Source of the DNA: a virus
Lineage: Duplodnaviria > Caudoviricetes
DNA length: 51,920 nucleotides
Strand: one strand, 5' to 3'
Virus record (IMG/VR): IMGVR_UViG_3300025154_000017
Span: 1-51,920 of that record
This document shows, one piece after another, positions 976 through 9,381 of this stretch. Position 1 is the first letter of the stretch; each line of letters begins with the position of its first letter. A program made the translations under genes and the position numbers. Under the pieces are notes generated by a model that ran no database searches, was not told where the DNA came from, and worked only from the letters and a program-made list of their open reading frames with translations.

Positions 976-1061
976 CGGAGAGCAGAGTATTCGAAACTCA
1001 CTCCTTTTAACGAGCCTATCGTTTAGCAAACGTAGCCACAGACACCCGCGGTTTACTCTCC
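976..1061 (-). tRNA. tRNA-Ser(GCT)
   Basis: GGAGAGT acceptor strand, loop TTGCTAA, long variable arm, TTCGAAT T-loop, G73; anticodon stem imperfect. Confidence 0.75.
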
Positions 1062-1066
1062 ATTAG

Positions 1067-1135
1067 TGGGAGCAATAGGCATCGAACCTATTATTTGGGG
1101 CTTTACAGGCCCGTCTTCTCCAAAGAATTACTCCC
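1067..1135 (-). tRNA. tRNA-Tyr(GTA), compact 69-nt form
   Basis: GGGAGTA/TGCTCCC acceptor, GGGC-CTGTAAA-GCCC anticodon arm, ATAGG-TTCGATG-CCTAT T-arm, A73. Confidence 0.75.
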
Positions 1136-1141
1136 TCATTG

Positions 1142-1233
1142 CGGATGGTGTAGGACTCGAACCTACACGCCGTGTTTAGCGACCTACGGTTTTCAAGACC
1201 GTCCCACTTAGGCCTACTGTGGTTTAACCATCC
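1142..1233 (-). tRNA. tRNA-Ser(TGA)
   Basis: ACGGT-CTTGAAA-ACCGT anticodon arm, long variable arm, GTAGG-TTCGAGT-CCTAC T-arm, G73. Confidence 0.9.
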
Positions 1234-1238
1234 ATTTG

Positions 1239-1314
1239 TGCCGCAGGTGAGATTCGAACTCACATAATTATTAGTTCCTAAGACTAACGCACGTGCCAAT
1301 TCTGCTACTGCGGC
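1239..1314 (-). tRNA. tRNA-Leu(TAG), short variable region
   Basis: GCCGCAG/CTGCGGC acceptor, TTAGT-CTTAGGA-ACTAA anticodon arm, 7-nt variable region, A73. Confidence 0.88.
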
Positions 1315-1320
1315 ATTTTG

Positions 1321-1396
1321 TACTCCGGGTCGGATTCGAACCGACACTGAACGGGGCTTAAACCCGTTGCCATTCTACCAGTTGGGCTACCGGAGC
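1321..1396 (-). tRNA. tRNA-Leu(TAA), short variable region
   Basis: GCTCCGG/CCGGAGT acceptor, ACGGG-TTTAAGC-CCCGT anticodon arm, 5-nt variable loop, A73. Confidence 0.88.
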
Positions 1397-1426
1397 AAAA
1401 TAAAAAACCCCGCTTATAAGGCGAGG
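1397..1426 (-). terminator. Intrinsic terminator (attenuator 3:4 hairpin) directly upstream of the tRNA array
   Basis: CCTCGC-CTTATAA-GCGGGG followed by TTTTTTATTTT. Confidence 0.85.
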
Positions 1427-1450
1427 CGCAAACTATAATATATACATAGC

Positions 1451-1510
1451 TCACCTACCCCGCCATAAAGACAAGAGCGATAGTGAACTATATAATAAAT
1501 CTCTTTTCAT
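1451..1510 (-). CDS. Attenuator leader peptide MKRDLLYSSLSLLSLWRGR
   Basis: ATG 7 nt after the TATATTTG promoter motif; 11 consecutive Leu/Ser/Tyr codons; overlaps alternative hairpins. Confidence 0.85.
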   Translation of the reverse strand: MKRDLLYSSLSLLSLWRGR

Positions 1511-1517
1511 ACCTATG

Positions 1518-1547
1518 CAAATATAACTATATTTAATAATTTACAAC
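1518..1547 (-). promoter_or_regulatory. Bacteroidota-type promoter for the leader/tRNA operon
   Basis: TATATTTG (-7) at 1518..1525 with GTTG (-33-like) 18 nt upstream. Confidence 0.75.
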
Positions 1548-1711: not shown

Positions 1712-2657
1712 TTTGTGCTTTTATCATTCGTTCTGCAATACTGTCTAATAGATACCCGATGCTATGACGGCAGTTGTAGCCGCCTCGGTCAGTGATGGGG
1801 TCGTAACCCGGATATGACAAATACGAAGGCACAACAGACGTGTCACGTTGTTTAACTTTATACCCCACAGGATATACACCCTGATCAGGCGTCCATGTCC
1901 GCCACTTTTCAGCATCCTCCTTTTTGAATATCTTACCGAGGTTTGCGACACAAAAGTCACGGCTATCCTTTACGATGCTGCCCTGATAAATGAAATAGTT
2001 CATTCCTGTTTCATCAGCCAGTGCGGTTGCATAGGCCGAATCGTACTGCATATAAATATCATGCGCATAACGATTGAACTGCTTTTCAATGCCTCCGGGT
2101 TTCACATCGTCACCGACAATCAAAGTATTCAGTCCTTTAATGTAATCCTTCATAGGGAACTGACCCGTTACTGCTTGAGCCGTGAACTGCTTCACATCCA
2201 AAAGTAAAGATTCGTTCTTTATCAAAGTCTCAAAGAACCCACCTGAAACGATATTGCCCCCTTCCAGTCCTAACCTCATGCCGATCTTCTTTGCAGCACC
2301 TTCAGCGACCTTAGCGAATAACTCAGGCGTTTCAAGTCCCATCATCACCTCGAAGTAAGTAACGTTTGCTTTCGTTATCCCTGCAACCGAGCCGCCGACC
2401 TCTTTAACAAACGGAATCCGCTGACCTTTCTGAAAGTCCGAATAAACTTTGTCAAGTGCAGCTAATAGCCGGTAGTTTTTCAGAGTGTTGCGAATACGAC
2501 CACCGGACATATCCAATTGCGGGATGATCTCTGCCGTCACCTTTGAGACAAGCATATCCTGCATCTTGCGAATAGTCTTGTTAAGGCTTGTTTCGCTCGA
2601 CAAAAGATACTGCTCTTTTTTCTTGAGCAACTCGCCCACCCTTTTAGGTAACTTCAT
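1689..2657 (-). CDS. Minor capsid / head morphogenesis protein (MuF/SPP1 gp7-like)
   Basis: C-terminal SRDFC...RGGYNCRH motif; lies downstream of portal. Confidence 0.75.
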   Translation of the reverse strand: MKLPKRVGELLKKKEQYLLSSETSLNKTIRKMQDMLVSKVTAEIIPQLDMSGGRIRNTLKNYRLLAALDKVYSDFQKGQRIPFVKEVGGSVAGITKANVTYFEVMMGLETPELFAKVAEGAAKKIGMRLGLEGGNIVSGGFFETLIKNESLLLDVKQFTAQAVTGQFPMKDYIKGLNTLIVGDDVKPGGIEKQFNRYAHDIYMQYDSAYATALADETGMNYFIYQGSIVKDSRDFCVANLGKIFKKEDAEKWRTWTPDQGVYPVGYKVKQRDTSVVPSYLSYPGYDPITDRGGYNCRHSIGYLLDSIAERMIKAQNERQKTE

Positions 2658-4535: not shown

Positions 4536-5131
4536 TCATAAGACCCAGGCAAATGACAAACAAAATACTCCGGTGTAGCAATCTTACCAAATTTTCTTGA
4601 CTTCATCATCAAACTCTGGTTAAAATAATGATCGTGAGCATAACCCCTGTGACCCCAACGTGCGCCTAACTCCCTTTTATGGCAGATATTTGACGTCCCG
4701 TTCTGCCCTAACTTCCTTATGTCACAGTTGCGCTCAACCCAATCGCCACCTGAGTAAATAATGTCATTATAAAACACCCAATCATAATCCTTCAGCCCGT
4801 CAGCGATCTTCTGTAAATGATTTTCTCCCCAATAGTCGTCAATGTCACAATAAATAATGAACTCACCCATTGCTTGTTCAATTCCCGTGTTCCGAGGCGC
4901 ACCGTCCCACATCGGCGCTTTCTTAATCAAAGTAGTCGTTATCCTTTCGTCGGTGAATTGCTTCATCAGGTCCATTGTTAGTTGACAGCCGTCAGCAACG
5001 ACCTGTAATTCAAAGTCTGTAAACGTTTGATCCAATACTGACTGCACTGCACGGACAATCTTTTCTTCACGACGAGAGGCCGCACCTGGATATTGCGACA
5101 ATAGTGACGGCATTATACAACTGAACTTCAT
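4529..5131 (-). CDS. Glycosyltransferase family 2
   Basis: AVQSVLDQTFTDFEL.VV.DG, RNTGI..A.GEFI.Y.DIDD motifs. Confidence 0.92.
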   Translation of the reverse strand: MKFSCIMPSLLSQYPGAASRREEKIVRAVQSVLDQTFTDFELQVVADGCQLTMDLMKQFTDERITTTLIKKAPMWDGAPRNTGIEQAMGEFIIYCDIDDYWGENHLQKIADGLKDYDWVFYNDIIYSGGDWVERNCDIRKLGQNGTSNICHKRELGARWGHRGYAHDHYFNQSLMMKSRKFGKIATPEYFVCHLPGSYDW

Positions 5132-6930
5132 TCTTCGACTGTTTCAACTCGTTCCTCTTCTGTGAACGTCAACTCCGGTTCCTTTGGCTTGGCCTCTTCC
5201 ATTTGCAAAATATATTCTTCACACTTAGCCTTGACCTTCTCAGTGATCACATCGTCAGCCATGTCATATATCCATACCTCGCTTTCCTGTTCGAGGTCAT
5301 TGAAAATAGATTCCAGATTTGCCCACAAAACAGCGTTGTAATGCGTTGTAAGGTTCTGCGAGATCAATAGCCTCACGTTCTCCTCGCTGTAGCCCCTGAA
5401 CGGGTTGTAGGCGTTCTTAATGCGTATAATCTTCAACTCTTCGGGCCGGTCAGCATAAAGCATCTCGTTAATATCATCTTCGATAGCTGCAATCGTCGAA
5501 GTAGAAGCACCGGCATCTTTTGCTCGTTTGAGTTCATCCATCATGTCGGCCTGAGTTTTGAACTTGAAGTCATCGGGGTATTGGTGTTCGACTATCAATC
5601 CCATGCCTAAGTCAGTAAAAGTAGCAATGTCCGTAACGACAAACTCCCACAAAGTAGAAAGTGCCGAAGCAAAAGGCTTCAATGTGTCGTTCATATTGTC
5701 CTCGGTGATCTTCACCTCGGTTGCCGTATTCGTGAGTTCATTGCGGGTCATCAACTCCTTGTTGAACATCATCAAATAAACCGAAGCCCGTAAACTCTGG
5801 ATGTACTGTTCTTGAAATTTTAATAGTTCAATCGGAGGTGACTTATACACTAATAGCTTTTCAAGATCAATCATCTCCGTTGTGTCATACGGAATATTAA
5901 GCGTGACAACATCCATCGTAGAAGCATGAATTGGTTCCTTGCCCGTTCCGTGACAAGTGCCGCAAGTTTTACCATCAGGCGTCACCCCACCCTTACAATC
6001 AGGGCAAGGATTAACATACCTGAACCGTTGCGGGAATGCAGTCATAGCAGTTGATAAGTCCAGTTCACTGTCGATCTTCAGCGTCTTATTCAGATACGGC
6101 ATCACATCATGAAATACTGAAATATACGTCCTGCCCTGTGTCTGTGAGTCGTACTTAAAGCCGAAGCGACGTGCTGGTATCTTGTCACCTTGCGGTACAA
6201 AGTACGCAACTGTATAATACTTGCCACCGATCTCAATACCGTCAGGGAAGCCGTCGTCTGTGACAAATAGCATCGGTTTATCACGCACCTCAGTAAAGAC
6301 AATCGTATCAGTGCCGAGATAAATAGTGTATTTCGTGCCTTCGTATTCTTTGCCTTCGAGATCAGTCAGTGTGATCGGCAGCTTAACGACCAGGTATTGA
6401 AGAATGTTGTTTTTGAACTCAAGCATTATCGCCTGCTCCGAAGTAGCGATGAACGGATAAGGCTTTGCTTTCTCTTTACGTGCGTCGAACTCGTCAAACT
6501 CAGTTATCAGAAAAGCATTCGGGTCAAGATAGTTATAGTCAACATACGCATACTCAAAGAACTTCTCTAACGAAGCGTCGCCCCAATATTCAGCGATCTT
6601 CAGTTCAAGTTCTGCCTGACGCTTTTCATAGTCGCCTTCAGTCTCCCAGTCGATCTTACGTACTTTGGGTTTCTTACGGACCGCTTTCTGAAACGACAAC
6701 TTCGTCGAGGCCAACGTCGGAGGGATAATTGAATTTGTGATCGTCTTACGCATCTCGAACTCGTCAACTGTTTCACGTGAAACAATCCTGCGAAGCAGAT
6801 CACTTATGCCGTCACCAGAGACCATCTTATAGTATTCATCTGCGAGATCGCACACGCGTTTATAATCTCTGTGGCGGATGTTATCTGTAACGATGCGTCG
6901 CAATTCTTTAAAGCCTTCTATCTTGTCCAT
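5128..6930 (-). CDS. Portal protein (with a DnaJ-like Zn-finger insertion)
   Basis: 600 aa directly after terL; helical; TATE motif; CPDCKGG...CGTCHGTG insertion. Confidence 0.8.
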   Translation of the reverse strand: MDKIEGFKELRRIVTDNIRHRDYKRVCDLADEYYKMVSGDGISDLLRRIVSRETVDEFEMRKTITNSIIPPTLASTKLSFQKAVRKKPKVRKIDWETEGDYEKRQAELELKIAEYWGDASLEKFFEYAYVDYNYLDPNAFLITEFDEFDARKEKAKPYPFIATSEQAIMLEFKNNILQYLVVKLPITLTDLEGKEYEGTKYTIYLGTDTIVFTEVRDKPMLFVTDDGFPDGIEIGGKYYTVAYFVPQGDKIPARRFGFKYDSQTQGRTYISVFHDVMPYLNKTLKIDSELDLSTAMTAFPQRFRYVNPCPDCKGGVTPDGKTCGTCHGTGKEPIHASTMDVVTLNIPYDTTEMIDLEKLLVYKSPPIELLKFQEQYIQSLRASVYLMMFNKELMTRNELTNTATEVKITEDNMNDTLKPFASALSTLWEFVVTDIATFTDLGMGLIVEHQYPDDFKFKTQADMMDELKRAKDAGASTSTIAAIEDDINEMLYADRPEELKIIRIKNAYNPFRGYSEENVRLLISQNLTTHYNAVLWANLESIFNDLEQESEVWIYDMADDVITEKVKAKCEEYILQMEEAKPKEPELTFTEEERVETVEE

Positions 6931-6933
6931 TAT

Positions 6934-9381
6934 CTATTTATAATAACTGTTAAAAACTTCACATAATTGATATTCGCAGTTATGCACAAGAATACCATTT
7001 GCAAAGTATTCATGTTCATCCTCCACGGTTATATCATAAACGGTTTTTTGTCCTCCTGGCTTTTCCCGCACATTGACGAGAGCAGAAAGTAGTTTTGCTC
7101 CATCTATTTGATCTAAACGTGTTTCCGCATAAGGAACATATCCTATCTTCATAATACTTTGTTGCAATACGAGCCAATCGTGTAATTCTCCTATTCTTGC
7201 AACTAATACAGCAGTATTTTGGTCGCCTTCTAAGTTTTGTTTGGAAAACGGCTTTGCATTCTTCGCAAACCGCAGAATACTCTTCACCATATATAGCGTG
7301 TTCAGCATTCTTAATATGCCACGCTCTTCCGTCAGGTGATTTATGCCATTCTGATGCTTTAGGTTGGGCCTTTTCTTGCAATACATCTTTAAGCATCTGC
7401 TTATAAGCATCAGACTTACATTCGTAATGGCTACCCATATGCTCTTTATAAGTAATAAGATTGAGATTTTCAATTTTATTATTGCTAAAATCACCATCAA
7501 TGTGATGTATCGTAAGTCCCTTTTGAATTTGCCCGTTATGCTTTTGCCATATGTACTGATGGAGATAAATCTTTTTCCATATCCCTGTTTCTTTTGTCCA
7601 TCCTTTGAAATAGTTCCGATCACTTGGTCTGTCTGCATTAGGGTATCTGTGAAATTTATACCCATCAATAATAATAGTTTCTCTATCCATGTCTTTTTTA
7701 TTGCAAAGATACTAATAATATTCTTTGCCGTCAGACTTGATACCATAATAAATTGACCACTTGCATAAATTTTATGATCCGGGGTGCAACTTAAGTTACG
7801 ATCACCTACGCTATACTTTTTTACTTCCTTATTATAAAATTTTCGTTTATCTATTACTTTTTTAAATCCCTTTCTTGTCAATACATTATCCCCGACTTTA
7901 ATCTTACTTATAGCCTTATTGCCCTTATCTGTAATAATTATTGTTTCGCCCACAAAACAAGTATCTGACAAATGGCCGTACTTCTGATACCTGTCACCTG
8001 TTTCTTTGTCTGTAACAATGTGTTTATCTTTTGCTCCGTTTATGTCCTGTTTGACGTACATCATATCAGCGACCATCAATTTGCAACTCTCGTCAATCAG
8101 TATTCTTATCGGTAATTTCTCTTCAAAGATACGGTTTATAAAGTCACGGCGTTTAGTAATCGACGGGTTCTGTCGCATCATCCTCGCTGATCCGTTTGTC
8201 AGAAACCTCCTTAATTTGTATTCAATGATCTCGTAATGATGCTTGAACTCTTTGTTCATTGTTGACCGTGCCCTGCCCGATGCATCACCGTAATAGTAAA
8301 TAGCAGATTTATGAGCATTATATCGCATCAGTATTTCTTCACAGACCTCTTCAGTTGAGTTACGAGGGTTTTCAAGTGCGATCTCGTCAATGCAATAGGA
8401 CCACCAAATATCATCCTTGCGCTCAAACTGCCAAATAGAACATGAATTGTAAGGAACGGAGTTTTGGTCAAACGAGATATGCAACGGCTTTGTTTTGTCG
8501 TAGGTACACTTGCCGACGTGTTTAAGGCGGTCAAAGGATGAATAGAACTCTCCCCCGGTTTGAGTGAAAGGGTTCCCGAATACAAGGGCACGGCCACGTT
8601 CCTCTGAGTTGTTGTCTAATATGCTTTGTATATAATTCTCTCCGACATTTTTAACATTGTGATAAGTAGATGATATCACCGCAAACTTATCACCTACTCG
8701 TTTCTCAAAGAACGTTTCACGGGAATATATCTTTGAGTTTATTTCTTCGACGTAGTTTTCTAAATTGAACCACTTCGAAATCCACTCTGTTTTTGCCGGT
8801 GAAGTTGTGATAAAAAGAGGATTGTATTGTTGATCTGGTTTACCCGTATGAGATAATTGGCCATTCACAAGGTACATTCCTTTTTTTCGTAGCCGCCCCA
8901 TAATAATCTCCTTCACGTCGGTCTCATCGGTATCTTTAGTCTCATCTAGGAACGCATAAGATATTTCCTTTCCTTCATGGTTTTTTGCGTTATCCATTGA
9001 GCCAATGAATATAATAGCTCCATTGATAAACGAAATAATGTTATGATAACTCTCAAAGTTATGACCATGCTTTTTAAAATGCTCTGGTGGTGTTTTGCCT
9101 ATAACGTATTGACCCCACGGGGAAGAATCTTTGCTATATTCTATTATGCCTACGGACTTCCAATATTCTCTGATCCTGAAAAGAGTTGCTGTGTTTAGCT
9201 GATCATAAAAATTTGCCCCAACAAAACCCACCGCATCGGGAAACGTTCTGATAAGCTGATATAATTTAATACCGCTTAAATGTGACTTCCCCGATCCAAG
9301 CCCTGCCAAAAATAAGTTTATAGAAGCAGTACTTTTTAATATTGCTTTCTGTGGAGCGGAAACTTCTTGTTCAATTTGCAT
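6934..9381 (-). CDS. terL: Terminase large subunit, intein-containing
   Basis: Walker A GLGSGKS, Walker B FLDE, ITTSP coupling motif, nuclease ISFD..GDASG..GHLSD; probable ATG at 9381 (track start 9405). Confidence 0.95.
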   Translation of the reverse strand: MQIEQEVSAPQKAILKSTASINLFLAGLGSGKSHLSGIKLYQLIRTFPDAVGFVGANFYDQLNTATLFRIREYWKSVGIIEYSKDSSPWGQYVIGKTPPEHFKKHGHNFESYHNIISFINGAIIFIGSMDNAKNHEGKEISYAFLDETKDTDETDVKEIIMGRLRKKGMYLVNGQLSHTGKPDQQYNPLFITTSPAKTEWISKWFNLENYVEEINSKIYSRETFFEKRVGDKFAVISSTYHNVKNVGENYIQSILDNNSEERGRALVFGNPFTQTGGEFYSSFDRLKHVGKCTYDKTKPLHISFDQNSVPYNSCSIWQFERKDDIWWSYCIDEIALENPRNSTEEVCEEILMRYNAHKSAIYYYGDASGRARSTMNKEFKHHYEIIEYKLRRFLTNGSARMMRQNPSITKRRDFINRIFEEKLPIRILIDESCKLMVADMMYVKQDINGAKDKHIVTDKETGDRYQKYGHLSDTCFVGETIIITDKGNKAISKIKVGDNVLTRKGFKKVIDKRKFYNKEVKKYSVGDRNLSCTPDHKIYASGQFIMVSSLTAKNIISIFAIKKTWIEKLLLLMGINFTDTLMQTDQVIGTISKDGQKKQGYGKRFISISTYGKSITGKFKRDLRYITLMVILAIIKLKISILLLIKSIWVAITNVSLMLISRCLKMYCKKRPNLKHQNGINHLTEERGILRMLNTLYMVKSILRFAKNAKPFSKQNLEGDQNTAVLVARIGELHDWLVLQQSIMKIGYVPYAETRLDQIDGAKLLSALVNVREKPGGQKTVYDITVEDEHEYFANGILVHNCEYQLCEVFNSYYK
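7034..7690 (-). CDS. HNH homing endonuclease with Zn fingers, nested out of frame in the intein
   Basis: YLHQYIW...IHHIDGDFSNNKIENL...EH HNH motif plus four CxxC/CxxxC pairs; -1 frame relative to terL. Confidence 0.92.
   Translation of the reverse strand: MDRETIIIDGYKFHRYPNADRPSDRNYFKGWTKETGIWKKIYLHQYIWQKHNGQIQKGLTIHHIDGDFSNNKIENLNLITYKEHMGSHYECKSDAYKQMLKDVLQEKAQPKASEWHKSPDGRAWHIKNAEHAIYGEEYSAVCEECKAVFQTKLRRRPKYCCISCKNRRITRLARIATKYYEDRICSLCGNTFRSNRWSKTTFCSRQCAGKARRTKNRL
7704..7711 (-). promoter_or_regulatory. Internal Bacteroidota -7 promoter element for the nested HNH
   Basis: TATCTTTG 13 nt upstream of the HNH ATG; TCTG 20 nt further upstream. Confidence 0.6.

Follow-up and report, generated by a model that had tools for sequence, protein, structure and literature searches.

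How could a phage that carries its own transfer RNA (tRNA) genes decide when they are transcribed? The question is raised by positions 976 to 1,547 of the IMG/VR virus record IMGVR_UViG_3300025154_000017 (Duplodnaviria; Caudoviricetes); the whole stretch analysed here, called the window, covers positions 1 to 51,920 and is a complete 51,920-base-pair virus record with direct terminal repeats. On its minus strand, a promoter-like box, a miniature open reading frame (ORF) and a hairpin followed by a T-run stand directly ahead of five tRNA genes for leucine, serine and tyrosine. We consider it probable that this arrangement constitutes a near-leaderless leader-peptide attenuator, which would gauge the decoding of the codons served by its own array and control the phage tRNA genes accordingly. 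The anatomy of the locus, its conservation, a frame-specific codon bias and a three-state folding pattern were computed, and they are presented below together with the alternatives against which this reading has to be weighed.

Read 5′ to 3′ on the minus strand, the locus runs from the end of a 48-codon ORF (1565) through an A/T-rich spacer, the box, the mini-ORF, the hairpin and the T-run into the tRNA array. The box, TATATTTG at 1525–1518, has the form TAnnTTTG and is a Bacteroidota-type −7 motif; a TAnnTTTG box at about −7 is the Bacteroidota promoter motif as defined in the accessible part of PMC7366714. It lies 7 nucleotides (nt) upstream of the ATG, which implies a near-leaderless transcript. 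The leader ORF, MKRDLLYSSLSLLSLWRGR (1510–1451, with the ATG at 1510 and the TGA at 1453–1451), has 19 sense codons, of which codons 5–15, read directly from the sequence, specify leucine, serine and tyrosine exclusively. Behind it, the terminator hairpin at 1407..1427 (GCCTCGC, loop CTTATAA, GCGGGGT) supplies segments 3 and 4 of the putative attenuator with seven pairs, five of them G-C, around a loop of 7, and the T-run TTTTTTATTTT (1397..1406) directly adjoins the first tRNA, the +1 of which is at 1396. With 0 nt between the end of the T-run (1397) and the start of tRNA-Leu (1396), there is no space for a promoter, so that the array could be transcribed only through the terminator. Promoter motif, 19-codon ORF and terminator are all present where the first-pass annotation, made from the letters and ORFs of the window, had placed them, and its reading of codons 5–15 was correct.

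The array comprises tRNA-Leu (UAA) at 1320..1396, tRNA-Leu (UAG) at 1238..1314, tRNA-Ser (UGA) at 1141..1233, tRNA-Tyr (GUA) at 1066..1135 and tRNA-Ser (GCU) at ~1061–975, all on the minus strand. Five tRNAs had been proposed behind the terminator, and four of them are called by ARAGORN at default settings or by Rfam; both tRNA-Leu genes and tRNA-Tyr are found by the two methods, and for tRNA-Ser (UGA), an ARAGORN default call, the best Rfam score belongs to the tRNA-Sec model and lies under the cut-off of that model. The fifth, tRNA-Ser (GCU), is called by ARAGORN at a relaxed threshold only, and its homologue in the related locus L009 is called at default settings. Both tRNA-Leu genes are 77 nt and the tRNA-Tyr gene is 70 nt long, with no long variable arm; leucine and tyrosine tRNA identities are class II in bacteria. 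It had also been claimed that the codons TTA TTA TAT AGT TCA CTA cover exactly the anticodons UAA, GUA, GCU, UGA and UAG. The mapping holds, and the word exactly has to be weakened, since two of the assignments need G:U wobble. Furthermore, the five tRNAs together decode nearly all Leu/Ser/Tyr codons, so that it is the amino-acid composition of the leader that is informative, and not the match of six codons.

The mechanism that we infer takes in the transcription start, translation, its coupling to transcription, the actual termination and the physiological trigger. Transcription would begin a few bases upstream of the ATG and give a leaderless or near-leaderless mRNA, the 19-codon ORF of which would be read by a ribosome before RNA polymerase has left the leader. 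With fast decoding of the Leu/Ser/Tyr codons 5–13, the ribosome would reach the stop codon and cover segment 2, the terminator would form, and transcription would stop at the T-run (1400–1397), just ahead of tRNA-Leu. With charged tRNAs scarce, the ribosome would stall and cover segment 1, so that segment 2 could form a helix with the 5′ arm of the terminator; polymerase would then continue into the five genes Leu-UAA, Leu-UAG, Ser-UGA, Tyr-GUA and Ser-GCU, and the tRNAs would be released from the transcript by enzymes such as RNase P. The new tRNAs would relieve the stall and the gate would shut, making the cassette a negative-feedback gauge of tRNA supply. Without translation, segments 1 and 2 would pair with each other and the terminator would form. 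Host codon mismatch, host shut-off and a tRNA-cleaving defence are candidate causes of the scarcity.

The unit of Leu/Leu/Ser/Tyr/Ser tRNAs with promoter, ORF and terminator recurs in other viral and metagenome contigs. Using short tRNA-Leu anchors, seven further distinct versions of the cassette were located in unrelated viral and metagenome contigs, giving eight in total: the window, L009 (= L021), L011, L012 (= L013), L016 (~L024) and L019 (~L022), whose leaders are referred to as the six core leaders, and the more distant L166 and L172. A TAnnTTTG box lies 4–8 nt upstream of the ATG in 6/6 core homologues, and the order of box, ATG, ORF and terminator is retained in six contexts with differing upstream neighbours, the terminator occurring in every homologue. 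The leader is present at six of the 12 metagenome anchor loci (L014, L015, L017, L018, L020 and L023 are without it), and a 15-nt tRNA anchor gave 65 viral loci, of which three were already known and two (L166 and L172) were new, the other 60 showing no leader by eye within 170 nt upstream. Both anchor loci in the genome collection (L202 and L203) are without a leader, and a blastn search of GenBank phages with positions 900–2700 returned 44 records with tRNA-Leu similarity only and no relative of the leader. An exact 24-nt leader pattern had no match in viral contigs; a degenerate one hit more than 115 stretches, and among the matches listed the filter kept the known leaders and one false positive, L040. 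A Tyr-tRNA anchor returned three loci already known and nothing new.

Promoter box, leader, terminator and tRNAs constitute one swappable, mobile cassette. Relatives of the neighbouring 322-amino-acid protein (61–94% identity) occur in seven viral loci, and in all seven the slot holds other cargo and no tRNA. Moreover, the contigs of a second strain in the same groundwater metagenome runs are unlike the window exactly from 1560, the upstream cassette edge, where they depart from it with cargo of the L001 type. This divergence at 1560 indicates that the exchanged unit takes in the promoter box and the leader, beyond the tRNAs. Across 1560–2700, two co-occurring strains can be seen, one identical to the window and the other with ~12% differences across the gene of the 322-amino-acid protein and different cargo beyond 1560. 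In L001 and L002, the 94%-identical relatives, the cassette slot (~5110–5640) is occupied by ~450 nt of imperfect short repeats, with units ending ...GTGAACCAT or ...AGACAACCA..., and an ORF from 5647 onward follows the repeat stretch.

Translation of the frame is argued for most strongly by its codons. In all eight versions the ATG opens a frame of 17–25 codons, which runs from just past the box into the antiterminator strand; this frame 0 is free of stops in 8/8, and stops occur in frame +1 in 8/8 and in frame +2 in 7/8. Counted over codons 4–14, residues of the set Leu/Ser/Tyr/Trp/Phe/Cys make up 77/88 in frame 0, against 35/88 and 36/88 in the other two frames, and nucleotide shuffling of each leader gave p values for its codon composition between 0.0001 and 0.027. 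In the window, 10 of these 11 codons are Leu, Ser or Tyr (p = 0.0001, 20,000 nucleotide shuffles), and the three residues together account for 11/18 in the leader versus 17.9% of the codons in the 38 ORFs of at least 150 amino acids in this phage. Since an RNA structure would bind all frames equally, it is the frame specificity of this bias that counts here. Between the leaders of the window and L009, the differences comprise synonymous substitutions, Leu-Ser exchanges and Phe to Leu, and thereby keep to the amino-acid set of the array; between these two loci the tRNAs are 86–97% identical (Ser-GCU 58%) and the leader ORF 69%, with frame, composition and switch kept.

As to whether the leader also follows finer differences among arrays, codons for Cys, Trp and Phe occur in the leader in 4/4 of the arrays with Trp/Phe/Cys tRNAs (L011, L012, L016 and L019) and are missing from the sensitive part of the leader in the window and L166, whose arrays are without such tRNAs; L009, likewise without them, has these codons, the L172 leader has two Cys codons ahead of an array that includes a tRNA whose anticodon loop is unusual, and the arrays are too few and too related for the comparison to carry a claim.

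Folding of the leaders provides the second line of evidence. In the window, the minimum-energy folds and the RNAalifold consensus place segment 1, with the control codons TAT AGT TCA CTA TCG CTC TTG, at 1470..1494, and the folds place segment 2 at 1443..1465, where it combines the G-rich GGCGGGGT (1464–1457) and the stop codon with the 3′ strand of the 1:2 hairpin. Without constraint, all six core leaders fold first into a long hairpin, in which the control codons pair with the G-rich region around the stop, and then into the terminator; the pairing of GGCGGGGT with the control codons, which had been proposed as the alternative to the antiterminator, is thus the minimum-energy fold. A ribosome mask extending from −15 to +12 around the aminoacyl site was then moved codon by codon and the probability of the terminator stem computed. 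For the six core leaders, this probability is 0.73–0.99 when no ribosome is present, falls to ~0 (≤0.16 in L012) with a ribosome stalled within a leader-dependent run of codons 3–13 (8–12 in L012), and is at least 0.96 with the ribosome between about codon 14 and the stop. Such a three-state switch at equilibrium, in silico, was obtained for 6/8 versions, namely 6/6 core leaders. In the stalled state of all six, the G-rich segment pairs with the 5′ arm of the terminator around a small inner hairpin, which in the window lies within the antiterminator helix at 1429..1454 (constrained fold, ribosome at codon 9). The antiterminator that had been predicted between GGCGGGGT and GCCTCGCC (1427–1420) can accordingly form.

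When the terminator was kept and the remainder of each leader dinucleotide-shuffled, minimum-energy folds reproduced the switch in 0, 1, 0, 2, 0 and 0 of 100 shuffles for the six core leaders, the window being at 0/100. The window switch was also robust when the footprint was made to extend to anywhere between +8 and +16 nt, the stall run always spanning TTA TTA TAT AGT TCA CTA TCG. The pairing strands vary from version to version (GGCGGGGT/GCCTCGCC in the window, CCGGGTAGG/CCTGCCCGG in L011), and because the register of the 2:3 helix differs among sequences, per-sequence duplexes were used rather than alignment pair counts. Segment 2 pairs with its own terminator arm at a mean of −16.8 kcal/mol versus −13.4 kcal/mol with the arms of homologues, 24/720 permutations among these six related sequences being as good; for the window's own arm the value is −15.9 kcal/mol. 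The RNAalifold consensus, also built on six related sequences, a number too small for formal testing of covariation, consists of the 1:2 hairpin and the terminator, with compensatory changes in 6/26 pairs. Taken with the homologues, the ribosome-mask folding supports, as a model, the 1:2/2:3/3:4 attenuator of the trp/leu/his type with array-matched codons that the first-pass annotation had put forward.

The third line of evidence comes from five larger relatives (L011, L012, L016, L019 and L021), which contain two more types of tRNA block, each again with a box, a mini-ORF and a terminator adjoining the first tRNA. These further leaders lie at 1432–1549 and 1981–2107 in L016 and at 1768–1899 (plus strand) and 3217–3109 (minus strand) in L019, and they are also found in L021, L011 and L012. 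Leaders ahead of Pro/Ile-UAU/His/Glu/Gln blocks have the core ...Q/I-H-I(ATA)-E-Q-P..., and those ahead of Ile/Met/Asn/Arg/Asp/Ala/Gly/Lys/Thr/Val blocks contain codons for those residues. Counting all codons after Met, the Pro-block leaders (82 codons) have 41 from the Pro/Ile-UAU/His/Glu/Gln set, 32 from the Ile/Met/Asn/.../Val set and 9 from the Leu/Ser/Tyr/Trp/Phe/Cys set; the Ile/Met-block leaders (118 codons) have 12, 94 and 12, and the Leu/Ser/Tyr-block leaders (107 codons) have 4, 35 and 68, in the same order. Codons outside the set of the block are mainly the A-rich first and the G-rich last ones. Because the three leader classes share no sequence relationship, inheritance of a single leader does not suffice to explain the matching rule. 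For 9/10 of these extra leaders, ribosome-mask folding gave a window of stall positions that abolish the terminator. Homologous arrays lacking a codon match, named at the outset as what would speak against attenuation, were for the most part not what we found, as both further classes match their own blocks; the expectation that leader codons would covary with arrays in relatives stands at the level of block classes and fails for the Cys, Trp and Phe codons of L009.

Nevertheless, a number of results weigh against an attenuator. TAnnTTTG is not enriched genome-wide (59 occurrences versus 49 ± 6.7 expected, with 7/100 shuffles reaching 59), and 5′ untranslated regions shorter than 10 nt make up ~3.7% in Bacteroides thetaiotaomicron according to the accessible part of PMC7366714, so that near-leaderless mRNAs are rare. 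The overall fold energy of the window leader has a z-score of −1.9, and the fold model is one of equilibrium with a hard ribosome mask that ignores kinetics. The homologues are related, so that numbers summed over them do not represent independent events. L166 switches weakly, from 0.15–0.25 rising to 0.94, with 0.41 when free of ribosomes, and L172 shows no switch at equilibrium; with the 3′ arm of its terminator left untranscribed, as a co-transcriptional approximation, L172 follows the same switch logic, and its duplex of segment 2 and arm reaches −14.8 kcal/mol, matched by 2/300 shuffles. Two of the ten extra leaders, A_L019 and B_L021, form no terminator when ribosome-free. As for the codons, the Cys, Trp and Phe codons of L009 stand in a record that is 86% complete and without such tRNAs, and CTC, present in 6/6 core leaders, has no Watson-Crick match to the UAA or the UAG anticodon, its conservation probably being held by pairing with segment 2.

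Some of these points would suit a plain intrinsic terminator, which would end an upstream transcript or dampen transcription, the tRNAs depending on leaky constitutive read-through and the mini-ORF and promoter motif being incidental; we regard this as unlikely. It would account for L015 and L023, where the ~80 nt ahead of the same tRNA-Leu contain a long perfect hairpin and a T-run that directly adjoin the gene, a stop-delimited leader ORF being absent, so that abutment by itself is no proof of regulation, and it is compatible with the unenriched box and the z-score, as well as with the fact that a 19-codon open frame is not rare by itself in AT-rich DNA. The terminator, however, is part of the cassette rather than of the phage backbone, and the conserved order of elements behind different neighbours, the codon bias confined to one frame, a three-state switch seen again in no more than 2 of 100 shuffles and the match between other tRNA blocks and their own leaders all argue against it.

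An element acting as RNA only, with its ORF untranslated, could be a processing or stability signal or a switch that senses uncharged tRNA, a protein or temperature, and seems to us quite improbable. The consensus structure with its compensatory pairs could be read in this way, conserved stretches of the ORF (TATAGT and CTCTTG) are largely base-paired too, and a very short 5′ untranslated region is unusual for Bacteroides. What speaks for a translated leader instead is that frame 0 alone is open in every version and enriched for the amino acids of the array, that substitutions among homologues, such as AGT/AGC and TTA/TTG in a comparison of L009 with L019, keep the amino-acid set, and that neither the T-box covariance model nor another riboswitch family matched 850–1750 on either strand at E ≤ 10. 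A real small-protein gene, encoding a hydrophobic peptide of 17–25 amino acids with a function of its own and followed by a terminator, the tRNAs being merely downstream, is very improbable, for although phages encode many small proteins and a loosely conserved pattern M-R/K-N...Y-S-S-F/L-L-L-L with a hydrophobic core can be recognized, the hydrophobic run, at ~11 residues, is not long enough for a membrane span, the window peptide shares composition with its relatives and not sequence (the ORF being far less conserved towards L009 than the tRNAs), the stop and last codons form part of the antiterminator strand in every version, and the two other leader classes use the same wiring with non-hydrophobic and quite different peptides.

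The leader-peptide attenuator, which remains the preferred reading, can be compared with several known systems. The trpL, hisL, leuL, thrL and ilvGMEDA leaders are transcription attenuators of amino-acid operons, and leader-peptide attenuation is textbook knowledge for such operons and related ones; tRNA genes are not known to be controlled in this way. The mechanism at pheL is described in the accessible part of PMC3082878. With all these leaders, the present locus would share a short ORF with many control codons, the 1:2, 2:3 and 3:4 hairpins, a terminator ahead of the regulated genes and a stop codon placed so that the finishing ribosome blocks segment 2, and with the multivalent ilv and thr leaders also the sensing of several amino acids together. 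It differs in that the regulated genes would be tRNA genes and not genes for producing or charging the sensed amino acid, such as those of biosynthetic enzymes, so that the product would feed back directly on the sensed quantity; furthermore, it is phage-borne, moves as a cassette and probably uses a leaderless mRNA without a Shine-Dalgarno sequence. Within 850–1750 on either strand, the nearest cis-regulatory Rfam model is Trp_leader (RF00513), which at 20.3 bits (E = 0.23) stays far under its cut-off of 41 bits, and no other Rfam leader family matched at E ≤ 10. T-boxes work by direct binding of uncharged tRNA, without any need for translation, extend over ~200–300 nt and are associated with synthetase and amino-acid genes, mainly in Firmicutes; the choice between terminator and antiterminator as a report on tRNA charging would be the same here, whereas translation would be required.

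Two further systems come close in part. In mycobacteria, leaderless short ORFs encoding polycysteine are cysteine-responsive attenuators, as described in the accessible part of bioRxiv 10.1101/834739; they would share with the present leader a leaderless first short ORF, rich in one kind of codon, that tunes downstream genes, but those belong to a different phylum and to protein-coding operons. The trn operon of Anabaena sp. PCC 7120 is an inducible, supernumerary and horizontally spread tRNA array, according to the accessible parts of PMC8421152 and PMC10272220. Like the proposed cassette, it stays off by default and is induced under impaired translation; its control, however, depends on the repressor TrcR, which binds direct repeats at the promoter, and it is cellular rather than phage-borne. 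The terms attenuat-, leader and terminator have 0 occurrences in the accessible part of PMC8421152. Our literature search returned no published leader-peptide attenuator ahead of tRNA genes, and older literature could hold one. A putative attenuator-like leader at the Escherichia coli tRNA-Phe genes pheU and pheV, on which PMC3082878 is silent, would be a possible old precedent. Leader-peptide attenuation itself is a known mechanism, and its use on tRNA genes would be the new element of the model.

If the model is true, a ribosome can measure tRNA supply and transcription can correct it, phages would regulate their tRNA genes instead of expressing them constitutively, and sensor and tRNAs would travel jointly as a plug-in module, which would also offer a compact regulatory part for Bacteroidota that is independent of the Shine-Dalgarno sequence. 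It bears on why phages carry particular tRNA sets, whether for codon compensation, for replacement after degradation of host tRNAs or for escape from tRNA-targeting defences, and it makes this question testable, as each leader names the codons that a phage "worries" about. The locus may serve as a counter-defence against tRNA nucleases, as the first-pass annotation had suggested, with support no better than for a simple feedback on tRNA supply. A bolder reading, which we offer only tentatively and hold doubtful, is that in this group of phages the genetic code is divided among tRNA blocks gauged one by one, each behind a leaderless test peptide and a switchable terminator of its own, and that the block of the window is a self-contained cassette, spread horizontally and serving mainly as a counter-defence, which would replace exactly those Leu/Ser/Tyr tRNAs lost to host anticodon nucleases or shut-off.

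Some minor features of the neighbourhood and of the relatives complete the picture. Pfam searches on six neighbouring ORFs gave a single match, to a GT2 glycosyltransferase, which has no bearing on the leader. Three ORFs interrupt arrays in the larger relatives, at ~1958–2436 in L012, on the minus strand of L019 between Leu-UAG and Ser-UGA and on the minus strand of L021 before Val-UAC; Cys-x-x-Cys-His motifs can be seen in them by eye, and they look like HNH-type homing endonucleases. On the minus strand of L172, a tRNA-like gene at 7710–7783 (41.5 bits) lies between Ser-GCU and Ser-UGA, in which ARAGORN reads a 2-base "anticodon". Finally, L011 contains, on the same contig as its tRNA blocks, a match to the Rfam model of permuted transfer-messenger RNA at 8409–8857 on the minus strand, with 49.2 bits against a cut-off of 47.

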